Virus record (IMG/VR): IMGVR_UViG_3300049795_000021
Span: 1-40,374 of that record
Direction: 5' to 3' (one strand)
DNA from: a virus
Length of the DNA stretch: 40,374 bases
Shown here: in pieces, positions 3,119-27,941 of the stretch
Layout of the letters: each line of letters begins with the position of its first letter
Numbering within the stretch: position 1 is the first letter of the stretch
The notes under the pieces: model-generated
What the model was told of the DNA's origin: nothing
Seen by the model: only the letters and a program-made list of their open reading frames with translations
Databases searched by the model: none
Made by a program: the position numbers and the translations under genes

Positions 3119-3197
3119 GCTACTTCCCTCGACGCACGAGATCCGGTGAGTGCGTCGGAGGAGAGGTCCGAACCGGACGGACGTTGGGAGGGATCGT

Positions 3198-5675
3198 ATG
3201 AGCATCGCGATCCCTCCCAAGCTCGCCGCGAAGGCCGGCCCCATCGGTCCCGGTAGCGGGCCGCTCCTGACTGAGTTCCCGCTGTCCGCCTACGCCAAGC
3301 CCAGCGCCCAGAAGAAGATGCAGAAGGCGTGGGCGCTGTCGTTCGAGGTGCCGTGGATCGCTGCAGCGGAGGATGCGATCACCGAACGGTTCGCGGGGGT
3401 CGAGTGGCACCTCGAAGACGAGAACGACGACGCCATCGACGACGCCTATCCGAACCAGGATGCGCAACTGGCGCGGACGCTAATCGAGAAGCCCGCGGCC
3501 AACCTGCCGGTGGGCGCGGCGTTCTACCGCTCCGACCTGTGGGCGCTCACGGCCCGGGCGATGGGCATCTGCGGCTCGTCGTTCATCTTCCTCGACCAGC
3601 CGGAACGGGTCGCCCGGACGCCGGCCGCGATGCTTCCGATCGCACCGTGGCGGATGAGCCCGAATGAGGACTCGCAGGGCAACCTCCTGACCTGGCAGAT
3701 CGACAAGACGCAGACGAGCCCCGGCATCGAAGTCTCGCTAGAGCAGATCCTCCATTACAAGCTCCGTCCCAACTTCGCCGGCCACTTCGGGGTCGGGCTC
3801 GTCGAAAGCGCGCTGCGCAAGGCCCAGATCACGACGGGCCTCGACGACCACATCGGGCTCGTGCTGTCCGGTGGCGGACGCTTGTCGGGCATCCTCTCGC
3901 CGAAGACCGGCATCGTTGGCGGAGATGAGATCCTCCAGATGGAGCGCGACTGGCGGACGATTGTCGAGCAGAGCGATGCCGCCAAGCGGTTGCAGCTCGT
4001 GCGGGCGCCGATCCAGTTCGACCGGACCACGCTCACGCCCGACGAGCTGAAGATCCGCGATCTCATGGTCGGCTCGCGGGACGACCTGCTGGCGCTGTGG
4101 GGCGTTCCGCTGTCGATCATTGGCGGCTCGACTCCCGCAGGGCTGAACTCAGGTGACACCCGCAAGTACGACGAGGCGGCGATCTGGCAGGGGCCGATCC
4201 ACCACCGACTCAACGTTTTCCGCGAGATCACGCAGTACCAGCTTCTCGACCGCTGGCGCGACCTCGGTGTCACGATCGAGCTGGAGATCGACGAACCGGA
4301 GTTTGACGACGACTCGCCGCGCTACGACCTCCTCGGCAAGTCCGTCAACGTTGCCCTGACGGACGATGAGCGTCGAGCACTGATCGGCAAGGAACCCCTG
4401 CCGAACGGCCTCGGGCTGATGGTCCGGCTGCCGGCAACGATCGTCGAGTCGTTCGCCGTGCCGTCGGTCGACGAAACCCCGTCGATCACCACGACGGTCC
4501 TCGGTCGGGCGGCGCAGCAGCAGCTCACGTCGGGCGATTCGGCGATGCTCGCGGCCGGCGAGACGAAAGCTGCCCTCCATCCCCGCGTCCAGCCGTTGCA
4601 CCAGGCGCTCATCCGCATCCGCAACCACATGGCATCGAAGGTCACCCCGCGGCTGCAGTCGTCCGTGGCGCAAGTGCTCACCGACCAGCGCCACGACATC
4701 GCCGCCCGACTCCGGGAGCACGCGGATCACGTCACGAAGAACCCCCGCGACACGAGCACATGGTTCGACAAAGGCTGGGACGCCAAGCTCCACAAGGCGT
4801 TGGTGCCGCACCTCACGGTCATGGCCGAGGCGGTCGTGGCGCAGGTTCACGACGTTCTGCCGGCCAAGCCGCACAAGGCCGGTCCTGTAGGGGCGGTCGA
4901 GCGGACCCTCAATCGTGGCGCGGCTCGGGTGACCGGGATCAACGAGACGACACGGGCGAAGATCCAGGAGGCCATCATCCGCGGGCTGGAGGACGGGTTG
5001 TCAGTTCTCGACGTGGCGGACCTGATCGAGGAATCGGGGACGGTCGGCGGTCTGGAGATGGGCGCGCTGTTCGACGAGTACCGCGCCGAGATGATCGCCC
5101 GGACCGAGCTGATGGACGCCTACAACGGCGCGGCCATCGGCAGCTACTCCGACGCCGGGATCACGCAGGTCGAGGCGATCGACGGCGACGGGGATGAGGA
5201 GTGCGCCGCGCGCGATGGGCAGACGTTCGGCATCGACGAGGCGGACGCCATCGAAGATCACCCGAACGGAACCTTGGATTGGGTGCCCGTGATCGGGGAG
5301 GAGGTCGCTATCGAAGGCAAGGCGGCCGTATCTGCACCCGTTCCCGTCACCACGCCCCAGAACTTCAACTTCAACTTCCCGGAGGGCATGGTCCGCGTCG
5401 AGCACCACGCCGGCGATGTCCACGTGGCCGCAGCGGAACCACAGATCATCCCGCCGGCGCAGATCGATGTCCACGTCCCCGACCAGCCGGCGCCGATCGT
5501 GAACACCGTGGTCAACGTTCCCGAAACGCCTGCGCCCATCGTCAACGTGGCCGGCGACACGCACATCGTCAACGTCCCGGAACCGTCCGTGACGGTGGTC
5601 GACGTCAAGCCAACCCGCAAGGTCATCGACCGCGATCGGACGGGCACGATCACCGGCATTCACGAGGAGAACTGA
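3198..5675 (+). CDS. Portal protein fused to a MuF / SPP1 gp7-like minor head protein domain
   Basis: ATG 3198 is preceded by GGGAGGG. 825 aa. Located downstream of terL. The C-terminal third carries MuF-like motifs (EMIARTELMDAYNGAAIG, DEECAARDGQTF, HPNGTLDW). A Pro/Val-rich repeat tail follows (VPDQPAPIVN, VPETPAPIVN, VPEPSVTVV). Confidence 0.75.
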   Translation: MSIAIPPKLAAKAGPIGPGSGPLLTEFPLSAYAKPSAQKKMQKAWALSFEVPWIAAAEDAITERFAGVEWHLEDENDDAIDDAYPNQDAQLARTLIEKPAANLPVGAAFYRSDLWALTARAMGICGSSFIFLDQPERVARTPAAMLPIAPWRMSPNEDSQGNLLTWQIDKTQTSPGIEVSLEQILHYKLRPNFAGHFGVGLVESALRKAQITTGLDDHIGLVLSGGGRLSGILSPKTGIVGGDEILQMERDWRTIVEQSDAAKRLQLVRAPIQFDRTTLTPDELKIRDLMVGSRDDLLALWGVPLSIIGGSTPAGLNSGDTRKYDEAAIWQGPIHHRLNVFREITQYQLLDRWRDLGVTIELEIDEPEFDDDSPRYDLLGKSVNVALTDDERRALIGKEPLPNGLGLMVRLPATIVESFAVPSVDETPSITTTVLGRAAQQQLTSGDSAMLAAGETKAALHPRVQPLHQALIRIRNHMASKVTPRLQSSVAQVLTDQRHDIAARLREHADHVTKNPRDTSTWFDKGWDAKLHKALVPHLTVMAEAVVAQVHDVLPAKPHKAGPVGAVERTLNRGAARVTGINETTRAKIQEAIIRGLEDGLSVLDVADLIEESGTVGGLEMGALFDEYRAEMIARTELMDAYNGAAIGSYSDAGITQVEAIDGDGDEECAARDGQTFGIDEADAIEDHPNGTLDWVPVIGEEVAIEGKAAVSAPVPVTTPQNFNFNFPEGMVRVEHHAGDVHVAAAEPQIIPPAQIDVHVPDQPAPIVNTVVNVPETPAPIVNVAGDTHIVNVPEPSVTVVDVKPTRKVIDRDRTGTITGIHEEN

Positions 5676-6625
5676 TGGACGATCTGCTCATGGCTCCGCG
5701 TGGCGATGTCGAGGTTCGGACGACGTCGCTCGTACCCGATGGCGCCCGCCCCGGTCTCCGTGAGCTGTGCGACGACCCGCGGGCGTTCACTCGTCCGATC
5801 CTGATTCGCGGGATCTGGCGCGATGCCGCCTTCGGAATGCAGCGGCGGGTCTGGCGTGAGCGTGTCCAGACGCACAACCTCCAGCTGAACGTCGGGCGCG
5901 ACCAGCAGAAGCGCATCGCGATGTTCGGCGACTTCGGAACCGCCCTCAATACCCTGGCGGCAGTGGGCACGGCGTCGGCCCCGACGGCCACGACATGGAC
6001 GGGCGCCGCGTCGTCGTTCCCGACCGCGACATCCGCCGCAGGCAATGCCGGCCTGCAGGGCAAGCTCGCTTTCATCGCCAATGCGATCTCCGCAGCGGCG
6101 TTCACGAACCCGGTCGTCGGGGTCATCCTGTCGAACACGGCCACTGTCCTGACGGTCGACCAGTGGTACGCCGTCCCGGTCACCGGCGCGGCAGGCACGA
6201 CGCCGGCCACAAACAGCGCATGCCTGATCCTGCCCGGCGGTGGGCCGATGTGGTTCTGCGCCCTGTCCACGAGCACCGCCGCAGCTGTGGCGAGCGACGT
6301 CACCCGCACGGCCGACGGACTGTGGGCCGATGGCACCGGTGGTGGCACGACGACTGAGCAGACGGCCAACGGCCTCGCCCGCGCGTACGTCGGTCATGGC
6401 AGCGCGACGCCGCCGACGATCTCCGGCGCGAACAACTACACCTACGGCCACACGTGGACGTACACCGGCGCGTCGACGGTCACGATCGGCAAGGTCGTCC
6501 TGTTCAACTCGCTCGCCTTCGCCGGCACCATCCCGATGCTCGAGACGCTCCTCAACGCGAATGCCTCGGTCGCAGCCAACGGCGACACGATCGTCCTGTC
6601 GTCCTGGTCGGTCACGGTGAACTGA
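5675..6625 (+). CDS. Hypothetical Ala/Thr/Gly-rich protein. First gene of the portal-protease insertion.
   Basis: The ATG overlaps the portal stop (TGATG). 316 aa. No recognisable motif. The longer ORF starting at 5201 overlaps the portal gene and is rejected. Confidence 0.6.
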   Translation: MDDLLMAPRGDVEVRTTSLVPDGARPGLRELCDDPRAFTRPILIRGIWRDAAFGMQRRVWRERVQTHNLQLNVGRDQQKRIAMFGDFGTALNTLAAVGTASAPTATTWTGAASSFPTATSAAGNAGLQGKLAFIANAISAAAFTNPVVGVILSNTATVLTVDQWYAVPVTGAAGTTPATNSACLILPGGGPMWFCALSTSTAAAVASDVTRTADGLWADGTGGGTTTEQTANGLARAYVGHGSATPPTISGANNYTYGHTWTYTGASTVTIGKVVLFNSLAFAGTIPMLETLLNANASVAANGDTIVLSSWSVTVN

Positions 6626-6627
6626 CG

Positions 6628-7089
6628 ATGGCTGCTGTCTTCACCGTCAACTCGGGCAAGGTCGCCGCTGCGTCGGCGGCGCTGAAGGTGGCCGTCCAGC
6701 TTGCCTCCACCGCCAACAAGACCTGCAAGATCATCGCGGTGGATTTCACCTTCGACGGGACGGATGCGACGAAGACGCCGATCCTCTGCGAGATGGTTCG
6801 CGAAACGGGCGTAAGTGCAACCGGCGGCACGGCCCCGACCCCGGTTCTGGCCGGCGGCGATGCGTCCGTCACCAGCGCGATGACCGCTCGGATCAACGAC
6901 ACCGCAGATGGCTCGGGGCCAACGGTGATCTGCGGCTGGCTTGTCTCGCCCACGTCGGGCTTCTCCTACCAGTGGCCGCTCGGGCGCGAGATCACCCTCA
7001 AGATCAGCGACTTCGTGGCGGCGCGGGTGACGACGGTGGCGGGGTCGGGTACGCCGAACTACGACGTCACCGTCTGGTACGAGGAGTGA
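6628..7089 (+). CDS. Hypothetical beta-rich protein
   Basis: ATG lies 2 nt after the upstream stop. 153 aa. High GC3. No recognised motif. Confidence 0.6.
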   Translation: MAAVFTVNSGKVAAASAALKVAVQLASTANKTCKIIAVDFTFDGTDATKTPILCEMVRETGVSATGGTAPTPVLAGGDASVTSAMTARINDTADGSGPTVICGWLVSPTSGFSYQWPLGREITLKISDFVAARVTTVAGSGTPNYDVTVWYEE

Positions 7090-8468
7090 GGCGTGCTGCT
7101 GTTCTCGCAGTCGTTCTCGCTTGGCTCCTGGTCGCGCCTGTCGATGCCAATCCGCCGCCCTGTCACGGCCAGATTTGTCCGCCGCCGGGGCCGGTAGCGA
7201 TGGGGCGCTTGAAAACGGCTGGTGCCGAGAGTCTCGACGTCAACGGGCTCGGGATCGAGGGGTTCGCGGCGAGCGCAGCCGGCGCGACTATCTCCACGCT
7301 CGTTCAGCGAACGGGATTGGCGTCATTCAAGGTGACCAATAACAGTAATGGAAACAACGGCGTCTGGAGTGGCCTGAGCACGGACGCCAATGTACTTGCC
7401 AGGTCCTATTTCTTTCGGATGTACTTCAGGATCGAAGTAGCTCCCTCCAGTGTCGAGACGATCTTCTCCACCGAGGATTTGCAGAACGCGGGCTTCAACC
7501 TCCAGCTCGGAACGGACCAAACCATCCAGTTGCGCGGCACCACGACTACGATCGGGAGTCCAAGCGCCGCGCTCGCTCTCAATACGTGGTACCGGGTCGA
7601 GGTATCCTGGAAGATCGGCTCTGGCTCGCTGGATGACAGCGTCGAATTTCGTCTCGATGGCGCGACGATCGCCTCCTCCACCAATGGGACGTGGTTCACG
7701 GTAGCCGCTGGACTTGTCGCGTTCGGAGCAATAAAGACGACGTCGACGGGCAGTATCTATTACTTCGACGACGTCGCTCTCAACGATGACCAAGGAGCCA
7801 GTCAGAACTCATGGCCCGGCGCCGGCAGCGTCGCCCTTCTTCTGCCGATCAGCGACAGCGCCGTGGGTGCAGGCTGGACGCTCGGCACTGGCACGGCCAT
7901 TAGCGCCAACGGTTTCGGCTCTGTCGATAACACACCACCAACGGGCGTTGCCGACCTCGCTGCGGGCTCCGATCCCAAACAGATCCGCAATGCCAGCGCG
8001 AACGCCAACACGAACTACGACGCGAACCTGACGACATATTTCAACGCGGGCATCGGGCCGAACAGTGTCGTCAATGTCCTCGTGCCCATCGTCGCAACGG
8101 CAGCGCCGGTGACGACGTCCTCCAAACAGGGCACCGTCGGCATCGTGAGCAACCCAACCATCGCCAATATCGCTTTGGGAGCAGGTGGCACCGCGGGCGC
8201 GTTCTGGTCCGGCGCGGCGGGAGCGGGGTATGCGACAGGTTGGAAGGTCTCGTTCGGGACCACAACGTACGCCCCGGCCGTCACCGTCACCACGTCTCCG
8301 GTCATGCGGATCACCCAGGTGACATCTTCCACCCGCATCGCGGTCGTCTGCTTCATGGGCATGTACGTCGACTACACGCCCGGCGGCAACCTGCCCGGAA
8401 CGGGCTTCGGCAAGACGAGCCAGGTGCGCGGTATCCGGGCCACGATCGCCCGATCGGACTTCTGGTAG
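7086..8468 (+). CDS. LamG / concanavalin-A-like lectin-fold protein with a signal-peptide-like N-terminus
   Basis: GTG 7086 overlaps the upstream stop (GTGA). The N-terminus is (M)RRAAVLAVVLAWLLVAPVDA followed by NPPPCHGQICPPPGP. The LamG-like core includes FFRMYFRIEV, NTWYRVEVSW, VEFRLDG and IYYFDDVALND. ATG 7200 is an alternative start. GC3 is visibly lower than in neighbouring genes. Confidence 0.65.
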   Translation: MRRAAVLAVVLAWLLVAPVDANPPPCHGQICPPPGPVAMGRLKTAGAESLDVNGLGIEGFAASAAGATISTLVQRTGLASFKVTNNSNGNNGVWSGLSTDANVLARSYFFRMYFRIEVAPSSVETIFSTEDLQNAGFNLQLGTDQTIQLRGTTTTIGSPSAALALNTWYRVEVSWKIGSGSLDDSVEFRLDGATIASSTNGTWFTVAAGLVAFGAIKTTSTGSIYYFDDVALNDDQGASQNSWPGAGSVALLLPISDSAVGAGWTLGTGTAISANGFGSVDNTPPTGVADLAAGSDPKQIRNASANANTNYDANLTTYFNAGIGPNSVVNVLVPIVATAAPVTTSSKQGTVGIVSNPTIANIALGAGGTAGAFWSGAAGAGYATGWKVSFGTTTYAPAVTVTTSPVMRITQVTSSTRIAVVCFMGMYVDYTPGGNLPGTGFGKTSQVRGIRATIARSDFW

Positions 8469-9575
8469 ATGGCACGCGCCGGACGCGCACAACCGATCCA
8501 CGTCAAGCCGCCCAAGCCACCGAAGGGCGGCGGGGCCAGCTTCACCGCGGTCGATAGCCTATCGGCTGAGTCGGACCTGGCGACCAAGACGGCTGGTGCG
8601 CCATCACGTACCGGAGCCGACAGTCTGGCGGCCGTCTCCGAGGTTGTCACCCGCGCAGCAACGGCGCGCAGTCGCACGGGTACGGATTCGCTCACCGCGC
8701 TGACCGATGCCGCCACTCGCACCGGCTCCGCCGCATCACGCACCGGAACGGATGCGCTCGCGGCCCTGACGGATACGGCGACTCGATCGGCGGTGGCACG
8801 ATCCCGAACGGGACCCGACTCGCTCGCGGCTCTCTCCGATGCCGCCACGCGAGCGGGGCAGACGTCCTCCCGGACGACCGCAGATAGCCTATCGGCCGAG
8901 ACCGATGCGGCGACGCGGGCCGGAGCGAGCGCCAGCCGAACCGGTTCCGATGCATTGAGCGCAGCAAGCGATGCCGCGACACGGGCCGCCGCGAGCTCGA
9001 CGAGGACGGGCACGGATGCGCTTGGCGCTCTCACGGATGCCGCTTCCCGCTCCGCTTCGGCCGCCAGTCGGACCAGCAGCGATGCTCTGACCGCCCTGAC
9101 AGATGCGGCGACCCGAGGCACATCGAACGCCCGGACCGGCTCAGACACTCTCGTAGCGTCGGCCGACATCGCGACGCGGGCCACGGCGACCAACACACGG
9201 AGCGCCTCGGACAGCCTCGCCGCTCTCGTCGATGTCGCGATGGGGGATGTCAGCGACCTCCGCACCGCCGCCGATGTCCTCGTATCGCTGGCAGACGTTG
9301 CCAGCCGATCTGCCGCTGCGACATCGCGGACGGCTGCTGATGCGCTGGACGCCTCAAGCGACATCGCAACATCGTTCGCCTCGGCGTCGCGAACCGCCAG
9401 CGATGTGCTCATTGCGTCCACGGATATCGCCCAGGCTGTCGGCATCGCGCAGGTCGTCGCGTCGGTCGGCGGAGGTGGACGCAACCGACGCCGGCACTTC
9501 ATCCCGGTCATTCCGATTATCCCCATTCAGATCGAGGACGAGGACCTGATCCTCCTCCTCTTGGAGGCTGCGTGA
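8469..9575 (+). CDS. Ser/Thr/Ala-rich protein built from about 14 tandem 22-aa repeats, with a hydrophobic-acidic C-terminus
   Basis: The ATG immediately follows the upstream TAG, and the stop overlaps the next start. The repeat unit is like SRTGTDSLTALTDAATRTGSAA. The C-terminus is RNRRRHFIPVIPIIPIQIEDEDLILLLLEAA. Confidence 0.7.
   Translation: MARAGRAQPIHVKPPKPPKGGGASFTAVDSLSAESDLATKTAGAPSRTGADSLAAVSEVVTRAATARSRTGTDSLTALTDAATRTGSAASRTGTDALAALTDTATRSAVARSRTGPDSLAALSDAATRAGQTSSRTTADSLSAETDAATRAGASASRTGSDALSAASDAATRAAASSTRTGTDALGALTDAASRSASAASRTSSDALTALTDAATRGTSNARTGSDTLVASADIATRATATNTRSASDSLAALVDVAMGDVSDLRTAADVLVSLADVASRSAAATSRTAADALDASSDIATSFASASRTASDVLIASTDIAQAVGIAQVVASVGGGGRNRRRHFIPVIPIIPIQIEDEDLILLLLEAA
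8538..9452 (+). repeat. About 14 diverged tandem repeats of 66 nt (some 63 nt), in-frame and coding
   Basis: Amino acids 24-328 of the 8469..9575 product parse into units that all keep the G-x-D-x-L ... D-x-A-[TS]-R register. Confidence 0.8.
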
Positions 9576-10651
9576 TGGCAGAAGGAACCATCGGCGGGAC
9601 ACCGATCAGCGAGCTTCCCGCGTCGTCGTTCGCGTACTGCGAAGCAGGATCCGAGGCCGTTTCGACGCGCTGCCACTTCCCGATCCGTGACAAATCGGGC
9701 AAGGCCGACGCGGCGCACGTCCGGAATGCGCTTGCACGGCTGTCCGGGTCGCCCTTCGAGGCCAAGGCTCGCCCGAAGGTCGAGGCGGCGGCGAAGGAAA
9801 TCGGCATCGGGCAACCCGGCGCGCAGAAGGCCGAGCCGATGACGACGAGCCAGCTCGACCGCTGGTTGTCCGGCAAGGTCCCGCGACGCATCCTCATGCT
9901 GCCGTTCGGCGGACCGCTGTCGGACGGCAAGGCTGGAGTGGACATCGACTACGAATACTTCGACGAGACAACGGACATCTACGGTCCGTTCCCGACCCTG
10001 CGCGCATCGCGTGAGCGCGTCGTCGACTGGCACCACGATGATGACGACGTGCCGTCACAGGTCGCCCGCAATGGCGATCCCAAACTGCTCTCAATGAAGG
10101 GCGCAATCCTCGGTCACCTCAATTTTGACGAGGACCCCGAGGCCGACGGCTATTGGGCCGACTGGTGGGCAAACGCCGGCGAGAAACGTCGTCGTCTGAT
10201 CGCCCTGCTCGACCGCAAAGGCGTGCCGATGTATGGCTCGACCCAGTCGGTCGCCAAGGCCCGCCTCCTGTGGCCGCCGGAGGCCGACGGACGGATCCCC
10301 GTCTGGCCGGTCATCCGCCACACGATCTCCACCAGTCCACAGAACACCTACGCCGTCGTGCCCGCCCTGAAGGCGACGCTTGCGGCCACCAACCTTGACG
10401 AGATCCCGGCCGAGGCGCTCAAGGCGCTGCTGGTCGGACTCGACGCGGATACGACGGAGCTTCTTCTCAGCTCGCCAGAGGCGGCGGTACGCGCTTCCGT
10501 CCTGGCCGGTGCAGAAGCGGTGAAGGCGGGTCGCGTTCTATCGAAGAAGAACATCGACGATCTGCAGGCGGCGATCGGGCTCCTATCGGACCTCCTGTCC
10601 AGGGGTGTCCTGCTGCCGGCTGCGGACACAGGAGACGAATTGACACCATGA
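9572..10651 (+). CDS. Prohead (capsid maturation) protease / scaffold-like protein (putative)
   Basis: 359 aa, directly upstream of and coupled to the major capsid gene. The N-terminal AAHVRNALARL motif is common in phage head-assembly proteins. The central region LMLPFGGPLSDGKAGVDIDYEYF ... VDWHHD ... YGSTQSV resembles actinophage maturation proteases. Confidence 0.5.
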   Translation: MMAEGTIGGTPISELPASSFAYCEAGSEAVSTRCHFPIRDKSGKADAAHVRNALARLSGSPFEAKARPKVEAAAKEIGIGQPGAQKAEPMTTSQLDRWLSGKVPRRILMLPFGGPLSDGKAGVDIDYEYFDETTDIYGPFPTLRASRERVVDWHHDDDDVPSQVARNGDPKLLSMKGAILGHLNFDEDPEADGYWADWWANAGEKRRRLIALLDRKGVPMYGSTQSVAKARLLWPPEADGRIPVWPVIRHTISTSPQNTYAVVPALKATLAATNLDEIPAEALKALLVGLDADTTELLLSSPEAAVRASVLAGAEAVKAGRVLSKKNIDDLQAAIGLLSDLLSRGVLLPAADTGDELTP

Positions 10652-12117
10652 GCGACGAAAAGGAGATCGGCGAGCAGATCGCCGAACTGACCGGCGAGCT
10701 TCGGAAGATCTCCGAACGCCGGACCGAGGCCCTCAAGGCTTCGACGGCTGACGGCGGGCGGGCTGCCGCAGCCGATGACGGAGCGAAGGACGTCAGCGCC
10801 CAACTGGTGGACCTGACGCGACAGGTTGCCGCCCTCCGCGGCGAGGACGACAAGAAGGCGTCGGACGCGGCGCGCAAGGCCGAGATCGAGGACGCCGTCA
10901 AGGCTGTCCTCAAGAACACCCGCAGCGCATCGCTGGCGGGCGCCATCGGCACCGGCTCGACGGGCGAGATCGACGACAGTCGCCTGATCCCGCAGGCCGC
11001 CACCCCGGCGCACCCGGCCCTCAAGGCACTGTTCCGCGATTACGTCGGCGGCGAGATCGTCAGCGGCTTCGTGGACAAGCTGTGGGGCACGCACGCGTCC
11101 GACTTCGCGATGGTCGGCCGCGGCAAGGCCAAGCTCGACGAGCTCGGCATGTTCTGGTCGGACCTTCCGCCCGAGAGCAAGGCCACCCTCGGCAACACCG
11201 GCGCGGCGGGTGGATACGTCCTGCCGAACAATCTTGTGGACACGGTCGTCAAGCCGTCCGTTCAGGAGGCTGTCTATCAGACGATCATCACCGTTCGCAA
11301 CGGCGTCAACGTCCGCGGCGTCGATCAGCCGTATCGCACCGGCGCGCCGACCCGGATGACGTTCCAGGCATGGGGCGTCGCGAAGGAGAACCTCGACGAG
11401 GCCTACGGGAGCTACTCGGCGGCCCTCGGCACGATGGCCCGCATCTACGATGTCGGCAAGCAATATCTCCGCTTCTCGCAGGGTGCGGCCGAGCAGGACG
11501 TCATGGACGAACTCGGCAAGGCCGCCATCCTCGGGGAGAACTTCTACATCCTCGCGGGCCTCGGTACGGGCACCGGTCCGTCCGGCGATCCGACGACGGG
11601 CGTCTACACCGCCCTCGCGGCGGCCGTGGCGGGCTACACCACCACGTTCACCGGATCGAGCTCCACGGTCGCCGGCTCCGCCGCGGCCGGTCTTGCCACG
11701 GCCTTCGGGGCGATGGCGACCCGTTCCCGGCGGCCCACGGCCGTCGTGACCGATGCCGTGACCTACTGGACGCTGTTCAGTCAGGGCTCGGACAACGCGG
11801 GCTTCTGGATGTCGGACCTGCTGGGCGCCGGGTTCCAGATCGGACCGGACAACTCCCTCCGCTGGAGGGGCGTGCCGATCCTGTACGACGCCAACTACAA
11901 CACCAACACCGGGACCACGAAGGGCGCGATCGCCGGCGACTGGCCGGCCCTCAAGCTCTATCGTGGCGCCGAGTTCCGGATCGACACCTCCGACCAGGCC
12001 GGCAGCCGCTGGGACAACAACCTCGTTGGGTTTAGGGGTGAGCAAGAGATCGGAATCAACGCCTCAACGGCCGTGTCGGTCGGGGCATTCCAGCGGATCA
12101 CCGGGCTGATCCCCTGA
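10648..12117 (+). CDS. Major capsid protein, HK97-fold type, with an N-terminal coiled-coil (delta/scaffold-like) domain
   Basis: 489 aa. Charged helical N-terminus (EIGEQIAELTGELRKISERRTEALKA). The C-terminal region is typical of HK97-like capsids (FRIDTSDQAGSRWDNNLVGFRGEQEIG). Position fits the head module. Confidence 0.8.
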   Translation: MSDEKEIGEQIAELTGELRKISERRTEALKASTADGGRAAAADDGAKDVSAQLVDLTRQVAALRGEDDKKASDAARKAEIEDAVKAVLKNTRSASLAGAIGTGSTGEIDDSRLIPQAATPAHPALKALFRDYVGGEIVSGFVDKLWGTHASDFAMVGRGKAKLDELGMFWSDLPPESKATLGNTGAAGGYVLPNNLVDTVVKPSVQEAVYQTIITVRNGVNVRGVDQPYRTGAPTRMTFQAWGVAKENLDEAYGSYSAALGTMARIYDVGKQYLRFSQGAAEQDVMDELGKAAILGENFYILAGLGTGTGPSGDPTTGVYTALAAAVAGYTTTFTGSSSTVAGSAAAGLATAFGAMATRSRRPTAVVTDAVTYWTLFSQGSDNAGFWMSDLLGAGFQIGPDNSLRWRGVPILYDANYNTNTGTTKGAIAGDWPALKLYRGAEFRIDTSDQAGSRWDNNLVGFRGEQEIGINASTAVSVGAFQRITGLIP

Positions 12118-12118
12118 T

Positions 12119-12742
12119 ATGAGCGTCTCCGCCGCTTTCCTGGTCAAGGACCCGCCGCTGGACCGGCTGGCGCTCCTCGTGGAGTACCTCCGGCCAATCG
12201 TGACGGAATTCGTCATCGTGGTCGATGACCGGACGGCGGCGGAGACGCTCGATCTGCTGTCCACCTGGCGGGGCGTGACCTGCGTCCCGTTCCGCTGGGT
12301 GGACGATTTCTCCGAGGCGCGGAACGCCGCGCTTCCCCATTGCTCGGGCGACTGGATCCTGCATCTCGACCCCGACGAGCTGCCCACGGCGGCGATGCTC
12401 GCGTTCATCGCGATGGTCGATGCCCAGCCACAGGAGGACGTCGACTGGCAGGGCTCGCGGTACATGGCCCCGCGGGGCTACCTGTTCTTCACGCAGAGCT
12501 ATTACGACGGCACACAGGCCTCCGAATGGGAGGAGCACTGGCACTGCCGGCTCTTCCGGAAGGGCTCGGTCTGGTACAAGCCGGTCCACGAGCAGGTCAT
12601 GCTCGAAGGGATGCCCGAGAGCCGGACTCGCGGCACGCCGCTGCTCCCGAAGGCACCCCGTTCGGCGTTCCTCATCCACTCGCGAATGAACGACGCGGCC
12701 AAGGATGAGCAGTACGCCGCGCTCAGCCTGGTGCCGGCGTGA
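12119..12742 (+). CDS. Glycosyltransferase family 2-like (GT-A fold)
   Basis: 207 aa. The start is 2 nt after the capsid stop. Motifs VIVVDDRT, DDFSEARNAAL and GDWILHLDPDE (DxD-type). Confidence 0.7.
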   Translation: MSVSAAFLVKDPPLDRLALLVEYLRPIVTEFVIVVDDRTAAETLDLLSTWRGVTCVPFRWVDDFSEARNAALPHCSGDWILHLDPDELPTAAMLAFIAMVDAQPQEDVDWQGSRYMAPRGYLFFTQSYYDGTQASEWEEHWHCRLFRKGSVWYKPVHEQVMLEGMPESRTRGTPLLPKAPRSAFLIHSRMNDAAKDEQYAALSLVPA

Positions 12743-13437: not shown

Positions 13438-14090
13438 TCGCCGCCATCATCCCGACTCGCTACCACCCGCCCGAGTTGGACGTGCTGCTTGATGTGCTGC
13501 GAGGCGACGGAGTGCAACCGATCGTCCTCGGATCGGGGTTGTTCGATCACCAGATCTACCGGATGTGGAACGCGGGCAGCGACGCAACTAGCGCACGGAC
13601 CGTCGCCATCCTCAACGATGACATCACGCTCCTGCCCGGCTCGCTTCCGCTCATGGAGCGCATCTTGTGGTCGAACCCTCCGCCATTCGGTTGGGTCGCA
13701 CCCGAATGGCCGCAATTGGCGGTCGTCTACCCCGACATGACGGCCGAGTGGAGCCTGCCGGCGGAGCCCATGGTTCAGCGCACGACGGGGACGTGGGGGG
13801 GCGGCGGGATGACCGGCTTCTGCTTCATGTTCCGGACCGACCTCCTGCTTCCGCGCTTCGACGAGGGCTACCACTGGTGGTACGGCGACGACGCCTTCGA
13901 GTTGGGCGTCAGGGATGCCGGCTACGGCGTCGGGCGGGTCGTCGGGGTTCCGGTGCGTCACGAGCCGAACGGAACGGCCTCCCGTCATTGGGATGAGCTA
14001 CAACCGCTGATCGAGCAGGATCGCGCGCGCTGGGACGCCTCGTGGAACGCTCGCCATGCCGCTATCGCGCACCGGGAGCGGGGCGAATGA
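13434..14090 (+). CDS. Glycosyltransferase family 2-like (GT-A fold)
   Basis: GTGA overlap start. 218 aa. N-terminal IAAIIPTRY, VAILNDDI (DxD-like), and GGGMTGFCFMFR plus WWYGDDAFE, typical of GT2. Confidence 0.6.
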   Translation: MIAAIIPTRYHPPELDVLLDVLRGDGVQPIVLGSGLFDHQIYRMWNAGSDATSARTVAILNDDITLLPGSLPLMERILWSNPPPFGWVAPEWPQLAVVYPDMTAEWSLPAEPMVQRTTGTWGGGGMTGFCFMFRTDLLLPRFDEGYHWWYGDDAFELGVRDAGYGVGRVVGVPVRHEPNGTASRHWDELQPLIEQDRARWDASWNARHAAIAHRERGE

Positions 14091-15301
14091 CGCGGCTGCT
14101 GTTCCTCGGCGACCTGGCACGCACCGGGTTCGGGACGGTGACGATGGATCTCGGGCAGGCGTTGCTCGACCTCGGCATCGACGTCCGCTTCTGCTCGCTG
14201 TCCGAGACGCCGGGGGAGTTGCCGGAGCCGTTCGCCTCGCGGACGGCCCTGCTCGGCTCGCCGGGCGGATGGCTGGACGAGACCAACCCCGAAACGGTCG
14301 GTCGCCTCGAAGGGATGTTCCTAGGTTCGCTGTTCGAAGACGGCTGGACACCCGACATCGGGCTCGTCACGGGCGACATCGGCTCGCTCAAGATCAGCCC
14401 GGTCCTGCAGTTCATCCCCGAGGGCTTCCCGGTCCTCCACTACGTGCCGATCGAGGGGATCGGGCTCCCGCCGTCATGGGCCGCTGTCTGGCGCAAGGTG
14501 CAGCCGGTCGCCATGAGCCAGTTCGGCGCGGATGAGATCGCTAAGGTGACCGGCCATCGTCCTCCGGTTGTCTATCACGGCGTCGATCCGCTGTTCCACC
14601 CGGCCTCGGTCGAGTCCCCGATCCGGATCGACGGCAAGCGTCTTCGGGCGCGCGAGGCGTGTCGCAGGTTCTTCGGCGGCGATCCCGACGACATCTGGCT
14701 TCTCCGGACGGACCGCCATATGCCGCGCAAGGCGTACGGCTCGCTCCTCCGCTCGATCGCGCCGGTCCTCAGAGGACACCCGAACGTCAAGCTGATCCTC
14801 CACTGCCGGACGATGGACGGCGGCGGGGACATGCGTGACGAAATCAGCAAGTACGGAGTCCTGTCCCGCCAGATCGTCATGACCGGCTTCATGGACCCGC
14901 CGTTGGGAGGGTTGCAGCGCGAGGCGCTGGCGGCGCTCTACAACGCGGCCGACATCTATGTCTCGGTGTCGGCCGAGGGCTTCGGGTTGACGATCGCCGA
15001 GGCGTTGGCCTGCGGCGTTCCAGCGGTGGGAATGGACTACTCGTCGGTGCCCGAGGTCATCGGACCGGCCGGCGTGCTGGTTCCCATCGCGGGGCTCATC
15101 GACAACATCTACTCGTACTTCTGGGCGCGCGTTGACGAACCGAAATTCGGGCAGGCTGTCGAGGGCCTGATCCGCGATGTCGCCAAGCGGCGACTGCTCG
15201 GCGCGCAGGGCCCTCGTCACGTCGCCGCACACTTCTCTTGGCCGAATGCCGCCCGGCAGTTCGTCTCCCTCATTGAGCTTCGAAACGAGGTGGCGGCATG
15301 A
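14087..15301 (+). CDS. Glycosyltransferase family 4 / GT1-like (GT-B fold)
   Basis: ATGA overlap start. 404 aa. C-terminal E-x7-E signature region SVSAEGFGLTIAEALACGVPAVGMDYSSVPEVI. Confidence 0.8.
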   Translation: MTRLLFLGDLARTGFGTVTMDLGQALLDLGIDVRFCSLSETPGELPEPFASRTALLGSPGGWLDETNPETVGRLEGMFLGSLFEDGWTPDIGLVTGDIGSLKISPVLQFIPEGFPVLHYVPIEGIGLPPSWAAVWRKVQPVAMSQFGADEIAKVTGHRPPVVYHGVDPLFHPASVESPIRIDGKRLRAREACRRFFGGDPDDIWLLRTDRHMPRKAYGSLLRSIAPVLRGHPNVKLILHCRTMDGGGDMRDEISKYGVLSRQIVMTGFMDPPLGGLQREALAALYNAADIYVSVSAEGFGLTIAEALACGVPAVGMDYSSVPEVIGPAGVLVPIAGLIDNIYSYFWARVDEPKFGQAVEGLIRDVAKRRLLGAQGPRHVAAHFSWPNAARQFVSLIELRNEVAA

Positions 15302-16179
15302 CCGCTCGCTGGCAGGCCGCCCACACCTACGCCGCTGGCACGATCATCCTGCCAACCGTCGACAACGGCCGCTGCTTCTATGCCTCGATCGGCGGGACGT
15401 CGGGCTCCAATGAACCGGCGTGGCCCGGCAGGTATCCCGGCGTCGCCGACGGGACGGCGATCATCTGGACGCCGTACACGATCATCCAACCATCGACCAT
15501 CCGCACGATCCAGGGTTGGGACGACTCCACGGGTAGGTACTCGGACGACGTGATCGGCAACTACCTGCTGGACTCGATCGCCGAGTTGGAGAAGACAACA
15601 CGGCGGTACTTCGTGAACAAGCCCGGCTTCACGTGGCAGATGACCTCGTACGGCCGCCCGATCCTCGCCCTGCCGGGACTCCGCACGGCCTCCGCGGTGA
15701 CGTATCAGGGCGCGGCGCAGGTGGCGGGCATTCCCGGACAGGGCTCGGGCTACATGCTCCTCCCAGATGCGCAGCAGACGGGCGTCTTCACCTCGATCTC
15801 CTTCCGGCCTCGCCGGATCCCCGATGGCGATGCGCCGTGGTGGCTGTCGCTGGGCGGCGCGACCACCAACTGGTTCGACACCGCGGCCGACAGCCCGTTC
15901 GACCCGCGGAACTACGGCGGCGGCTACGTCTTCACCTCGACCGAGCTCGACACGATCATCGTCGGCGACTGGGGCTACGCGCCGGGCTCGGAGCCGGGGC
16001 CGTTCGTCCACGCCCTCGAAATCCTCGCCTCGTTCGCCCAGCAGCGGCCGGTGAGCCTGCTCGCGGATTCGGTCATCACGCCACAGGGTGGTGTCCTGTC
16101 CTATAGCCAGATGCCCGCCGAGGTCGGTCAGTTCGTCCGCGATTGGAGTGCGGGTCAGCAGGCGGTCTCACTGGGATGA
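15298..16179 (+). CDS. Head-tail adaptor/connector (gp6-like) with an extra N-terminal GTSGxxEPxWP module
   Basis: 293 aa. YSDDVIGNYLLDSIAELEKTTRRYF resembles gp6-like connectors. The N-terminal ~60 aa (WQAAHTYAAG ... GGTSGSNEPAWP ... DGTAIIW) is paralogous to the N-terminus of the 16807..17442 product. Confidence 0.5.
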   Translation: MTARWQAAHTYAAGTIILPTVDNGRCFYASIGGTSGSNEPAWPGRYPGVADGTAIIWTPYTIIQPSTIRTIQGWDDSTGRYSDDVIGNYLLDSIAELEKTTRRYFVNKPGFTWQMTSYGRPILALPGLRTASAVTYQGAAQVAGIPGQGSGYMLLPDAQQTGVFTSISFRPRRIPDGDAPWWLSLGGATTNWFDTAADSPFDPRNYGGGYVFTSTELDTIIVGDWGYAPGSEPGPFVHALEILASFAQQRPVSLLADSVITPQGGVLSYSQMPAEVGQFVRDWSAGQQAVSLG

Positions 16180-16322: not shown

Positions 16323-16810
16323 GTGAGACGATCGTCGGTCTCTCGGCGCTCAACTGGCGCATGGCCGCTGTTCAGCAGCCCAAAGGCCTGATGAAACTCG
16401 CCGCCGAGCATGTCGTGGGTCAGTTGAGACGGAATATTCCGCGAAAGAGCAGCGGGACATCGCGCACGATTCATGTGGCGGAGGTCAGAGAGACATCGGC
16501 CCTGGTCGTAGGCAACAAGGTGGCGTTGTTCCTTGATATGGGCACCGGCCTATTTGGTCCCAAGCACCAGCGGATCACCCCGAGTGCAGCTAAGGCGCTC
16601 CGCTGGATGGGCGGTCCGGCCGGGTCGCTGCGGTTGTCAGGCAGGGCGCGCAAGGGCAAGGCCGGAACAGGGGCGCACTGGATCTACGCTCGCTCGATAA
16701 AGGGCATGAAGGCGCGCCCGTACATCAGTCGTTCGGTTCAGGAGGCGGCCAGGAAGGTCGGTGTGGAACTGTCCGCTGAGATCATCAAGGACTGGAACGG
16801 CGCCGGGTGA
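16319..16810 (+). CDS. HK97 gp10-like head-tail joining / tail completion protein
   Basis: 163 aa from ATG 16319. The C-terminal GMKARPYISRSV motif is typical of the gp10 family. Position is within the neck module. Confidence 0.6.
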   Translation: MSETIVGLSALNWRMAAVQQPKGLMKLAAEHVVGQLRRNIPRKSSGTSRTIHVAEVRETSALVVGNKVALFLDMGTGLFGPKHQRITPSAAKALRWMGGPAGSLRLSGRARKGKAGTGAHWIYARSIKGMKARPYISRSVQEAARKVGVELSAEIIKDWNGAG

Positions 16811-17442
16811 ACACCACGATCTGGAATCCGTACTGGCAGGCACTCCACGCCTACAGCCTGACCGCGGTCATCCGGCCCACGACGTTCGCGGGCTACACCT
16901 GGCGCGTCACGACGGCCGGGACCAGCGGGGCGACCGAGCCGACGTGGCCCAATCCGCTGCTGACGCCGACCATCGTCGACGGGACCGTGACGTGGAGCGC
17001 GGACACGGCCTTCCGGCAGCAGACGCAGGCGGCCATCCTGACCCTCGTGACCGCGTTCAAGGCGGCGAACCCCACGATCGTCCGCTCGGTCGCGAGCGTC
17101 AGGCCGGGGTCATTTGCCGGTACCGCGTCACTCCCTGTCTTCTACATCGGGGACATGAGCGAGAGTTACGCCTACGTCGGGCAGGTCTGGCAGCGGACGA
17201 TGGCGGGGCTCACCTGTTACCTCGTGGATCAGCTCGGCACCGTGGGCGACTCGAACGACCGGATGAACTTCGCCCACGACGTGTTGGCCGACCTGTTCAC
17301 CGTGAACTTCCACGCGATCTCCCCGCGCTCGATCCTCCAACTCTCAGCGATCAACGACTTCGAGTTCGAGGACCTCGGTCCCGCGTATCCCGCGCTGCAG
17401 TTCATCTTCGGCAGCACCAACATGCAGGAGGGGCGCACGTAG
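16807..17442 (+). CDS. Neck / tail terminator-like protein with an N-terminal GTSGxxEPxWP module
   Basis: GTGA overlap start. 211 aa. It lies just before the major tail gene. The N-terminus is WQALHAYSL ... TAGTSGATEPTWP ... DGTVTW. Confidence 0.45.
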   Translation: MNTTIWNPYWQALHAYSLTAVIRPTTFAGYTWRVTTAGTSGATEPTWPNPLLTPTIVDGTVTWSADTAFRQQTQAAILTLVTAFKAANPTIVRSVASVRPGSFAGTASLPVFYIGDMSESYAYVGQVWQRTMAGLTCYLVDQLGTVGDSNDRMNFAHDVLADLFTVNFHAISPRSILQLSAINDFEFEDLGPAYPALQFIFGSTNMQEGRT

Positions 17443-17529: not shown

Positions 17530-18552
17530 ATGCCGCTCACCCCAGCAGTCGGAGCACTCAGGCTTCGGGCCTTTCAGACGGGCCTCGAAAGCACGTTCAA
17601 GACCGCCGTCCCGGCCACCCGGCGCTATAGCTGGTCGGCGGTACCGGACATCAATCCCAACTGGACGTTCCCGACCGGCGACACGGGGACGCTCGACCAG
17701 GGACAGGCGCCGTATGGCACGGCCCGCGACTTCGTCCTTGCCGCAACGGGTCAGCTCGCCGCCAACGACGTGCCCACGATCCAGTCGGCGGGTGTCATGG
17801 GTGGCCAGTCGATCACGACATCGGGCACCGCCAAGACCTTCACGACACAGCCCGCGTCGCTCTCGCAGGACGTCTTCGATACCTGGACGGGCGAATGGTT
17901 CGATGACTCGACCGACGCCTTCCAGCTCGACGGCGGGGTCATCAACGACTTCTCCCTCGAATACCCGCAGGATGGCGGCCCGATCAACCTGACCGCCAAC
18001 TGGCGGTTCGCCAAACTCGGGACCTACCCCGCCACCCCGACGCCGGGCCTGACGCCGGACCAGAGCCCGGTCTACCTCTACATGACCGATACCGAGTTCT
18101 ACGTCAACGACAGCTCGGGCACGATCGAGACCACGAAGCTCACCGACATCGCCTACGGGGCGACGTTCGGGGTCAACAACAACCTCGACCTGAAGCGCTG
18201 GGCCAACGGTTCCTCGACGCGGTTCCAGATCCAGAACTACGGCCGCGGCCTGCGCGTCGTGAACTTCGCCCTGATCGGGGCCAAGCAGACGGCATGGGTC
18301 GCCGAGTGCGTCAAGTGGCTGGCCGATAATCCGGTCGAGCGCTTCTGGGGCCTCAAGACGACCTCGACCGCGTTCGCCTCGCTGGGTGTTCCGTACTTGC
18401 TCGACATCCGGATGCCGGGCTACTGGCTCTCCCGGTCCGAGCAGACGATCAACTCCAACACCGCGTTCCAGCTCTCCGGGCAGAACGTCTACGACTCGGG
18501 ACTCGGCTATCCGTTCCGGATGTCGTCGGTCTCGACGAGGGCCGCGCTGTGA
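17530..18552 (+). CDS. Major tail (tube) protein (putative)
   Basis: 340 aa. GGGAGA RBS. It immediately precedes the frameshifting tail assembly chaperone pair, the canonical siphovirus position. Confidence 0.55.
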   Translation: MPLTPAVGALRLRAFQTGLESTFKTAVPATRRYSWSAVPDINPNWTFPTGDTGTLDQGQAPYGTARDFVLAATGQLAANDVPTIQSAGVMGGQSITTSGTAKTFTTQPASLSQDVFDTWTGEWFDDSTDAFQLDGGVINDFSLEYPQDGGPINLTANWRFAKLGTYPATPTPGLTPDQSPVYLYMTDTEFYVNDSSGTIETTKLTDIAYGATFGVNNNLDLKRWANGSSTRFQIQNYGRGLRVVNFALIGAKQTAWVAECVKWLADNPVERFWGLKTTSTAFASLGVPYLLDIRMPGYWLSRSEQTINSNTAFQLSGQNVYDSGLGYPFRMSSVSTRAAL

Positions 18553-19040
18553 TCGAGGTCGTCGTCCCCTGCTCGTGCCCGGGCGCGCCGCACGAGCAGG
18601 ACAGCGTGTCACTGCCATCGGAGACCGACGTCCGCATCGGCGCCGCTGTCATGGCGGCGGTCCGGGTCAGTCCCAGCAGCATCCCCGAGATGGAGAGTGC
18701 GATCTCGACCGCGCTCCTCCATGTCGCGCCGCGAGCGTGGACCTTTGTCGACGAGAAAGGCGAGCCGCTAGAGGTCAGCGCCGAAAACATCGACGCGCGC
18801 CTAACGTGGAACCACGGAGGGATGGAGGTCGCTGAGAAGGCGAATGACCTCTACGGGGCTGGCTCTCCGACCGGTGTGTTCGTCCCTTTACTCCCCAAGA
18901 AACCGAAGGCTTCGCGCTCTGGGCGGACGGCCGCCTCGACCTCTCCGACCCCTACGTCTGGATCGCCCACGGACTCGTCGGACAAGCCGTCCTTGCGCGC
19001 TGTCACGGGTGGCAAGCGATCCGGGGCGAAGGCGAGTTGA
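18549..19040 (+). CDS. Tail assembly chaperone, short (G-like) form
   Basis: GTGA overlap start. It lies between the major tail and tape measure genes and contains the slippery heptamer CCCTTTA in the correct phase. Confidence 0.75.
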   Translation: MIEVVVPCSCPGAPHEQDSVSLPSETDVRIGAAVMAAVRVSPSSIPEMESAISTALLHVAPRAWTFVDEKGEPLEVSAENIDARLTWNHGGMEVAEKANDLYGAGSPTGVFVPLLPKKPKASRSGRTAASTSPTPTSGSPTDSSDKPSLRAVTGGKRSGAKAS

Positions 19041-27651: not shown

Positions 27652-27941
27652 CTCCCCACTGCGACGCCTTCGCCACCGGGCGCGCTGCCTCCGCTTGGGG
27701 CTTCGGCTCGCTGCCGTGCCAGCGCAGCTTGGGGTTGCGGACGCTCGTCGACTCGATGGGCGTGCGCCGCCGCTTCTGTGCCAGCCCCGCCCACGAGGCC
27801 AACGTCGTCCGCCGGTTCGGGCGCTCCGTCTCAGAGGAAGAGCGCGTCGCCCTCGCCATCGAGCGGATCTCGCGCGACTTCACCGACGAGGTAGAGCGCA
27901 ATCCCGAGGGCGATCCCACCCTGAACGGCGCGTTCGGATGA
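27648..27941 (+). CDS. Hypothetical protein
   Basis: ATGA overlap. 97 aa. Acidic C-terminal half with coding-like composition. Confidence 0.5.
   Translation: MTPHCDAFATGRAASAWGFGSLPCQRSLGLRTLVDSMGVRRRFCASPAHEANVVRRFGRSVSEEERVALAIERISRDFTDEVERNPEGDPTLNGAFG

Follow-up and report, generated by a model that had tools for sequence, protein, structure and literature searches.

Where does the lectin-like protein encoded at positions 7086–8468 (plus strand) of the IMG/VR virus record IMGVR_UViG_3300049795_000021 begin, and in which compartment would it end up? The DNA analysed, positions 1 to 40,374 of this record, is called the window, which always means the whole stretch of 40,374 nucleotides; P-numbers denote homologous proteins and L-numbers the loci of relatives. 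With a GC content of about 66%, the window is the genome of a phage and includes genes for a terminase, a tape-measure protein, an ERF recombinase and a GH25 (glycoside hydrolase family 25) endolysin. No tRNA genes were found in it, and no relative at the nucleotide level was found among 50,697 phage records. A first-pass annotation had suggested that the gene encodes a protein with a signal-peptide-like N-terminus within the head module and had been acquired recently, or that translation begins only at ATG 7200. That 7086–8468 is a real gene of the family PHROG 14065 with the fold described below is hardly in doubt. The explanation which we favour overall, and which we would give an even chance, combines an exported long form, a retained short form, and a role directed at glycans.

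Position of the gene and its two candidate starts

The open frame containing the gene spans 6972–8468. Translation from GTG 7086, which overlaps the stop codon TGA 7087–7089 of the upstream gene as GTGA, yields (M)RRAAVLAVVLAWLLVAPVDA-NPPPCHGQICPPPGPVA-MGRLKTAGAE..., in agreement with the N-terminal sequence and the overlap described in the first-pass annotation. The gene is flanked by a portal-MuF gene (3150–5675) on one side and by protease/scaffold-like and major capsid genes (9572–12117) on the other, which bears out the placement inside the head module. The junctions of the neighbouring genes in this operon overlap or abut (5672/5675, 6625/6628, 8468/8469, 9572/9575, and 10648/10651). As all of them do so, the GTGA at 7086 suits a coupled operon, in which the gap of 110 nucleotides left by a start at ATG 7200 would be unique.

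The database gene call for this contig, P0001, has 422 amino acids and starts from ATG 7200, which is residue 39 (M39) of the long form. Among the best 150 of 5,756 cluster representatives of the family nearly all begin at profile position 42, which equals M39. Homology to PHROG 14065 and to proteins of the phages Hiyaa and Galactica begins exactly at this residue, and in most relatives an in-frame stop is located directly before the M/V-ARL start. The alternative start at ATG 7200 therefore stood the comparison in so far as this codon is both the ancestral start and the one most often used in the family, besides being that of the database call, but not as a replacement for the start at 7086, as the 38 codons upstream of it are under coding selection. 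The signal-less family start at ATG 7200 and the start of the extension may both be used.

Evidence for translation of the extension

The same architecture of the extension is found in P0004, P0005, P0009, P0013, P0027, and P0137. A basic n-region and a hydrophobic core are followed in it by small or aliphatic residues at −3 and −1, two cysteines around a histidine in a proline-rich stretch, and the sequence M/V-G/A-R-L. The closest homologue, P0002, has been called from its ATG, and the 130-nucleotide 'gap' upstream of that codon encodes in frame V-RRAIVLAFVLAWLLGCASVSA-NPPPCHGQVCPTPGPVA-MGRL. When the extension of the window was compared with that of L030, the closest relative, the differences at codon positions 1/2/3 amounted to 7/3/15; of the codon changes, 12 were synonymous and 7 non-synonymous. 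Identity is 78% in the extension as compared with at most 41% in the adjoining concanavalin A (ConA)-like domain. Shine-Dalgarno (SD) pairing at the extension starts has a mean strength of −8.3 kcal/mol compared with a background of −3.7 (p = 9e-6), and good SD sequences precede these starts in independent genomic contexts, e.g., aataGGAGGtatcggatGTG in L035.

The N-terminus was further tested with a simple heuristic which considers the n-, h-, and c-regions and the residues at −3 and −1 and which takes the place of SignalP here. Within the six frames of the window just 15 of the 1283 start codons followed by at least 60 open codons (1.2%) passed this test, and so did all seven of the homologous extensions then available. 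The shared architecture, the bias towards synonymous changes, the SD sequences, the layout of the operon, and the signal test together indicate that the long form is translated and very probably exported.

It may be asked whether only a short protein is made from ATG 7200, with the 110 upstream bases as an untranslated spacer and the signal-like translation as an accident of GC-rich DNA; the product would then lack the linker residues 22–38, which include NPPPCHGQICPPPGPVAMGR. This would agree with the database gene call, with the start of nearly all family members and the in-frame stop just upstream of it, and with the poor SD geometry at GTG 7086. Such an explanation is nevertheless highly improbable in view of the conservation of the extension as protein in at least eight relatives with about 50% identity of the body, the synonymous-biased substitutions in precisely this frame, the strong SD sequences at extension starts in independent contexts, the rarity of signal-like translations behind arbitrary starts, and the gap that it would leave in an operon of overlapping genes.

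A search of 5.8 billion proteins with a profile of the extension only (50–60 residues) gave nothing at E <= 10, the query being too short for a database of that size. A scan of 185,579 species genomes yielded a single locus, a short form in a metagenome-assembled genome of the Burkholderiaceae. The idea that the long forms make up a single clade was not supported, the carriers being interleaved with the verified short form P0003 (L036). Two loci flagged automatically as 'LONG?' in the metagenome screen turned out to be artefacts with a stop codon directly before the methionine.

The predicted export signal

The charged n-region, the hydrophobic core, and the VDA site reported in the first-pass annotation were all recovered, and this N-terminus both passes the heuristic and is conserved in relatives. 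By the same heuristic it has the features of a Sec signal, with a positive n-region, an uncharged hydrophobic h-region, and a polar c-region within about 25 residues. The predicted cleavage sites in the carriers, with the arrow at the scissile bond, are VDA↓N, VSA↓N, VHA↓D, ASA↓S, AKA↓T, AIA↓G, and AWA↓G; the site in L034 is ambiguous (SSS↓A). All carriers of the Cys-loop keep a small residue at −1, a small or aliphatic residue at −3, and a residue other than proline at +1. The linker which follows has two cysteines 4–7 residues apart with a histidine between them and proline-rich flanks, a motif common to L029, L030, L032, L033, L034, L035, and L037. In the AlphaFold2 (AF2) model a low-confidence helix at residues 2–14 is followed by a disordered linker. 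From the heuristic and the conservation we consider it quite likely that the N-terminus is a genuine, coding signal of the Sec type.

Two other types of signal were considered and rejected. A twin-arginine translocation (Tat) signal was judged by the motif S/T-R-R-x-F-L-K and a moderately hydrophobic h-region. The window has RR, but its homologues have KR, RP, or RG instead, and the n-region is very short with a strongly hydrophobic h-region (mean Kyte-Doolittle value about 3.1). Sec is favoured over Tat because of these replacements in the homologues and the very hydrophobic core. A lipoprotein signal was dismissed for the window, which has no lipobox [LVI][ASTVI][GAS]C and in which the first cysteine comes after NPPP. 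A lipobox (IVGC) was seen in the distant relative P0204 only. Versions predicted to be exported or to be lipoproteins appear to recur within the family.

The very hydrophobic h-region of 11–15 residues with RR ahead of it could also be taken for an uncleaved signal-anchor, by which the lectin domains would stay fixed to the cytoplasmic membrane, on its outer face, in type II topology. The relative L076 has a clearly longer transmembrane-like N-terminal segment, in an open reading frame (ORF) whose link to the family module is unconfirmed. Such an anchor is very unlikely, since the small residues at −3 and −1 and the non-proline residue at +1 are kept in all Cys-loop carriers and the h-region is short for stable anchoring.

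The retained internal start

Relatives with a signal are built in two ways. In the first, to which the window belongs (n = 13), signal and linker are followed by a methionine codon and the body. This codon is ATG in all but one, which has GTG, and the linker residues just before it vary freely. Besides the Cys-loop type this group includes a Gly-rich linker (P0156 and P0188) and an NPHD type (P0184 and P0204, the latter with the lipobox). In the second the signal is fused to the body without a methionine, as in L120 (...QNSYA↓ARLWSSGFE), L093, L110, L112, and P0163. L120 has a phage context, adjoins a tail-fibre-like gene, and matches PHROG 14065 at E 6.8e-70. This second design shows that versions of the family exist for which export only is predicted.

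In three of these relatives very large proteins begin with the signal peptide and, directly behind it, the two-domain module (L093, 1134–4991; L110, 526–4566; L112, 2896–4305). P0163 is a giant protein as well. Those of L093 and L110 exceed 1,285 amino acids, carry ankyrin-type repeats at the C-terminus, and come from contigs of 52–56% GC; the ORF of L112 runs off its contig. These proteins may be cellular or of giant-virus origin and not typical phage genes.

In six of the eight Cys-loop carriers a TAG is found at −5 to −3 of the internal start, formed by GTA or ATA followed by G. In these loci GTA makes up 1.4–8% of the valine codons and ATA at most 4% of the isoleucine codons, and a TAG at offset +1 has a frequency of only 0.0015–0.008 per codon. 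In short-form relatives it is the stop of the upstream gene, usually TAG, that lies a few bases from their start. As these stops sit likewise and the TAG is conserved, the long forms have kept the ancestral stop-NN-start junction at the nucleotide level. The TAG of the window is in the frame of the upstream gene, and the layout looks as if 108 nucleotides with a TGA of their own had been inserted ahead of the old junction.

The TAG also ends an ORF in the +1 frame, whose GTG 7093 is preceded by GAGGAG (7081–7086) at a distance of 6 nucleotides. Each of the six TAG carriers has a corresponding open +1 frame with a start codon close by. The +1 ORF at 7093–7197 was rejected as a real small protein, since the peptide diverges and the differences to L030 hit its second codon positions. 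The SD sequences of the internal starts have a mean strength of −5.9 kcal/mol across the carriers (p = 0.012), and two are very strong. These belong to the linkers of L039 and L040, which encode strong SD sequences 9 nucleotides before the internal ATG (−12.1 and −13.1 kcal/mol). In P0156 the Gly-rich linker has the coding sequence GGAGGCGGAGGAGGA, at about 6070–6093 of L039, which gives rise to a near-perfect Shine-Dalgarno sequence located 9 nucleotides before the retained ATG.

Continued use of the internal start appears to be the best explanation for the first design, the window included. The retained start together with the TAG suggests a second, signal-less isoform, and the existence of two isoforms falls only a little short of an even chance. 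One could instead suppose that only the long form is made and exported, as a secreted or wall-associated enzyme or lectin similar to polysaccharide lyases which is no part of the virion, with M39 and the TAG as functionless leftovers. The relatives in which the signal is fused to the body without a methionine (L120, L093, L110, and L112) fit this supposition, as do the homology of the first domain to Cip1 and polysaccharide-lyase-like proteins and the weak SD sequence ahead of ATG 7200. It does not account for the retention of ATG or GTG in all 13 carriers of signal and linker amid freely varying linker residues, or for a TAG that is kept by means of rare GTA and ATA codons although other synonymous sites have diverged. 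M39 is located in a low-confidence segment of the model ahead of the first strand, where nothing in the structure obviously requires it to be kept. Exclusive production of the long form is thus somewhat unlikely.

Fold and family

The features of the locus are collected in Table 1. The strands FFRMYFRIEV, NTWYRVEVSW, VEFRLDG, and IYYFDDVALND, from which a laminin G (LamG)- or ConA-like fold had been proposed, are all present in the product. At the superfamily level the proposal held, as a profile of 103 homologues matches the core domain of Cip1 (PDB 3ZYP) across the whole first domain (E 3.2e-6). It did not hold at the level of the family Laminin_G_3 (PF13385), which the window protein does not match and which was matched by two of the 103 homologues; ten of the 103 matched PF21340 (Cip1-like/polysaccharide-lyase-like). 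The window protein alone has no match in Pfam, NCBIfam, or PADLOC.

The AF2 model of the whole protein has a pLDDT (predicted local distance difference test) of 84 and a pTM (predicted template modelling score) of 0.82 and places beta-sandwiches at residues 41–235 and 248–431. Foldseek related the first domain to the sialic-acid-binding domain of Vibrio cholerae sialidase, the receptor-binding domain of botulinum neurotoxin, Cip1 (3zyp), and alginate lyase, with E about 1e-7. The second domain modelled alone reached a pLDDT of 81. Its Foldseek matches are weak (E 2e-4 to 5e-3; template modelling scores about 0.35–0.45 relative to the query and at most 0.59 relative to the target) and comprise the carbohydrate-binding modules (CBMs) CBM35, CBM6, CBM16, and CBM22, discoidin, and Cry toxins. 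The mean identity to homologues is 31% in the first domain, which is variable and fast evolving, as compared with 69% in the conserved second domain. Conserved single residues of the protein are R75, R111, Y113, E172, D228, and D229. According to these models the body of the protein is composed of two beta-sandwiches of carbohydrate-binding type, one variable and Cip1/ConA-like and one conserved and CBM-like.

PHROG 14065 is matched at E 4.1e-15, with residues 39–356 aligned to profile positions 1–311. The family comprises 5,756 clusters (50% identity) at E <= 1e-3 and 956 at E <= 1e-30 and is spread over phages of 39–68% GC. Many members form the N-terminal module of proteins of 600–3,451 amino acids with repeat-rich tails. 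A search of a viral structure library matched the whole two-domain protein to phage proteins that are uncharacterised, one of which bears the label 'virion structural protein'. Within structural operons the family is encoded in the head-neck part, either as a free-standing protein or as the module at the N-terminus of long, repeat-rich proteins.

The C-terminal tail of the window protein (8382–8465, plus strand) is variable and modelled with low confidence, with basic residues followed by aromatic ones (...IARSDFW). Several relatives end similarly (NRAASF, GRSASY, KRSSFY, and HSAFY), and another class of tails ends in DVGMALTVT or PQILAQ. The tail of the window protein may be a docking peptide.

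Table 1. Coordinates of the gene, its parts, and its cassette partners in the window
Feature	Position	Strand	Remarks
Long-form coding sequence, 460 codons + stop	7086..8468	+	GTG start; in-frame extension conserved among relatives
Predicted signal peptide, residues 1–21, (M)RR / AAVLAVVLAWLLV / APVDA	7086..7148	+	heuristic; predicted cleavage after VDA
Cys-loop/Pro-rich linker, residues 22–38, NPPPCHGQICPPPGPVA	7149..7199	+	Cys codons 7161–7163, 7176–7178; Cys-x4-Cys
Out-of-frame TAG two bases before ATG 7200	7195..7197	+	rare codon GTA then G
Retained ancestral start codon (M39)	7200..7202	+	family start; 13/13 signal + linker carriers keep ATG/GTG
Speculative +1-frame short ORF, GTG start, 34 codons, TAG stop	7093..7197	+	could couple translation to ATG 7200
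Cip1/ConA-like beta-jelly-roll domain, residues 39–236	7200..7793	+	profile match to 3ZYP, AF2, Foldseek
Second beta-sandwich, CBM/discoidin-like, residues 245–432	7818..8381	+	AF2, weak Foldseek matches
Upstream cassette partner, 153 amino acids, ends TVWYEE	6628..7089	+	always directly upstream of homologue
Downstream cassette partner, repeat-rich, Ala/Ser/Thr/Arg-rich	8469..9575	+	translation; low third-position GC

Proposed mechanism

In the explanation favoured here, ribosomes which end the upstream gene at TGA 7087–7089 would restart at the overlapping GTG 7086 and yield a precursor. This precursor would be exported through Sec and cleaved after VDA, leaving a lectin-like protein on the external side of the membrane or in the wall. 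Less certainly, ribosomes would still start at ATG 7200 as well, be it through termination-reinitiation at the conserved TAG-CG-ATG or through direct internal initiation. An exported isoform and a cytoplasmic isoform that is probably destined for the virion would in this way arise from a single gene. As a guess, the exported isoform might bind or cleave the host surface glycan which is recognised by the variable ConA-like domain of the signal-less form. Receptors might then be masked or destroyed late in infection, with less superinfection and less loss of progeny on cell debris as the supposed consequence. This putative receptor-masking role of the exported form is doubtful.

The two compartments might also be served by alternative restarts, at GTG 7086 in frame 0 or at GTG 7093 in the +1 frame. 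Restart at the better-placed GTG 7093 would lead through the 34-codon, non-conserved 'bridge' ORF to TAG 7195–7197 and to reinitiation at ATG 7200 two bases further on. This route would provide the cytoplasmic, virion-destined isoform, and restart at GTG 7086 the isoform exported by Sec. The exported copy would then mask or destroy the receptor with a specificity matched to that of the virion itself. Several lineages within the family would show such an arrangement; in some of them, SD sequences hidden in Gly-rich linkers would be used instead. This more elaborate version is again an unlikely one.

A number of points weigh against the explanation we favour. The SD sequence GAGGAG (7081–7086) abuts GTG 7086 with zero spacing, so that initiation there must rely on coupling. 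At −5.5 kcal/mol, near the 25th percentile of the background, ATG 7200 has a weak SD sequence in front of it. As 45–59% of +1 windows of 35 codons are open by chance, the +1 ORF alone is not significant. The methionine has been lost in the signal-bearing L093, L110, L112, L120, and P0163, so that the family as such need not have a second isoform. The call of the signal derives from the simple heuristic and not from SignalP, and the virion association of the family from gene position and the depositor labels 'minor tail protein' and 'virion structural protein'. Finally, the protein has no match to known defence or exclusion families in PADLOC and NCBIfam.

Comparison with known systems

The closest described counterparts of the module are the 'minor tail proteins' gp13 of Streptomyces phage Hiyaa and gp11 of Galactica, in which about 290 residues are homologous with 31–32% identity and Met1 corresponds to M39 of the window. 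As in the window, its gene belongs to the head-neck part of the structural operon, and lies there between those for capsid and adaptor. The proteins differ in that those of Hiyaa and Galactica have about 1,100 amino acids and no signal peptide, their function being an annotation only, whereas in the window the module stands alone (422 amino acids), with a separate repeat-rich gene behind it and the 38-residue signal and linker extension in front. With the Cip1 core (PDB 3ZYP; PF21340) and with ConA-like lectin and polysaccharide-lyase folds the protein shares the jelly roll and the profile homology mentioned above. Cip1, in contrast, is a secreted fungal protein without a second domain, and the window protein alone remains below all Pfam thresholds.

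Exported phage proteins encoded among or next to structural genes have been known from Llp of T5, Cor of phi80 and N15, and Lom and Bor of lambda. These proteins act at the cell envelope, where Llp and Cor mask the phage receptor. The window resembles these cases in having a signal-bearing phage protein, predicted to be exported, within or beside structural genes. Llp, Cor, Lom, and Bor are, however, small lipoproteins or outer-membrane proteins without relation to it in sequence or fold, and the protein of the window belongs to a lectin family of structural modules which is otherwise signal-less. Nested genes with two in-frame starts have likewise been described in phages, e.g., S107/S105 and C/Nu3 of lambda. 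The window would resemble them in having two starts in one gene and products with different fates, as judged by comparison from the retained ATG, the conserved TAG-NN-ATG, and the internal SD sequences of some relatives; its putative products would differ from each other in compartment, one exported and the other cytoplasmic.

The fold, the family, exported phage proteins among structural genes, and nested dual-start genes are therefore already known. What appears to be new is that a lectin family of structural modules repeatedly acquires predicted Sec or lipoprotein signals, and that a recurrent design apparently keeps the ancestral start and the coupling junction under selection. Since automatic gene calling trimmed the extension in the window and in its closest relative, exported versions of structural modules may be under-counted. 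If the long form is exported, a copy of the glycan-binding module of the phage itself could become a factor at the cell surface with a specificity that would automatically match that of the virion, by an evolutionary route different from that of the unrelated small lipoproteins Llp and Cor. If both starts are used, cytoplasmic and exported isoforms would be obtained from one gene by start-site choice and termination-reinitiation. A functional lead on PHROG 14065, with its thousands of clusters, would annotate many phage genomes.

Codon usage and the question of recent acquisition

The A/T-ending codons quoted in the first-pass annotation are all found in the gene, and the deviation towards A/T-richer third positions was substantiated. 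The GC content at third codon positions (GC3) is 0.76 compared with 0.855 expected from the amino-acid composition, and with z = −7.6 the gene is the most deviant of 26 genes. The lowest GC content of the window (0.587) lies inside it, at 7201–7800, and the downstream gene at 8469–9575 is the second most deviant (z = −5.0). From such a bias a recent horizontal acquisition had been concluded, as of a moron, an explanation which is not exclusive of the others discussed here. In addition to these z values, it could draw on the varying site of the cassette, between the portal and protease genes in the window and L029 and behind the gene for the capsid in L039 and Hiyaa, and on the wide range of GC content among the phages which carry the family.

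The conclusion was not supported by the comparison with relatives. GC3 of the homologue and of its downstream neighbour is 0.83 and 0.78 in L029, compared with about 0.90 in neighbouring genes, and 0.80 and 0.76 in L030, compared with about 0.87. As this deficit follows the cassette in both relatives, the bias is a trait of the cassette and not the sign of a fresh arrival. The homologue of L029 occupies the same syntenic slot, and both junctions of the gene in the window are translationally coupled. No promoter-like site of its own was found in 5500–10000, and terminator-like sites were no commoner there than in shuffled sequence. Recent acquisition is accordingly improbable; the bias is compatible with a mosaic, mobile module.

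Other plus-strand ORFs with significantly deviant codon usage are located at 31378–32172 (z −4.4), 30185–30835 (z −2.9), and 18549–19040 (z −3.1). At 27001–27900 a sharp GC peak of 0.73–0.77 with an AT skew of −0.24 forms the compositional extreme opposite to the region of the gene.

Neighbouring genes

The gene is part of a block with the conserved order variable gene, 153-residue protein, lectin-like protein, and repeat-rich protein. The 153-residue protein is 78–86% identical in L029 and L030 and 82–89% identical over the 66 residues available in L036, and is far more conserved than the adjoining lectin-like protein. It has no family or PDB match and no tblastn match among the 50,697 phage records.

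The downstream protein is composed of about 14 diverged units of about 23 amino acids of the type SRTG-D-L-AL-D-ATR and ends in GGGGRNRRRHFIPVIPIIPIQIEDEDLILLLLEAA. The repeats are visible at the protein level only, Tandem Repeats Finder having detected no significant DNA array in the gene. Its relatives have 217–637 amino acids and all carry an acidic/hydrophobic tail like that of the window, and those of L029 and L030 share the N-terminus MARLGRT.PVQAKY. Repeat-rich tails of a similar kind occur in other phages as fusions to the two-domain module. Sequence searches of the neighbour proteins against PDB gave no matches, and none of the four cassette genes has a match in NCBIfam or PADLOC.

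A match to PF23140, 'podophage GP4 fiber I protein gp80', was obtained for the gene just upstream in two relatives. The block is located between the capsid and connector genes in L039 and Hiyaa and just upstream of the connector genes in L038. This gene context points to a putative accessory of fibre or decoration type in the head-neck region.

Directly after the major capsid gene, genes for glycosyltransferases of the GT2 (12119–12742) and GT4 (14042–15301) families are found on the plus strand, and the same place in L029 (14875–20056) is occupied by genes for a methyltransferase, an epimerase, and a GT4 enzyme. Glycosylation of virions has been proposed for some mycobacteriophages (PMC11256854). 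By analogy, the glycosyltransferase genes after the capsid gene suggest a putative glycosylation of the virion here, to which the nearby lectin-like gene could be related.

The portal and MuF-like domains are fused in one ORF of 841 amino acids (3150–5675, plus strand), and the same fusion is present in L029 with 803 amino acids. Two further plus-strand genes, at 15298–16179 and 16807–17442, have a common N-terminal segment of about 60 residues which matches the C-terminal part of PHROG 20658 ('head decoration').

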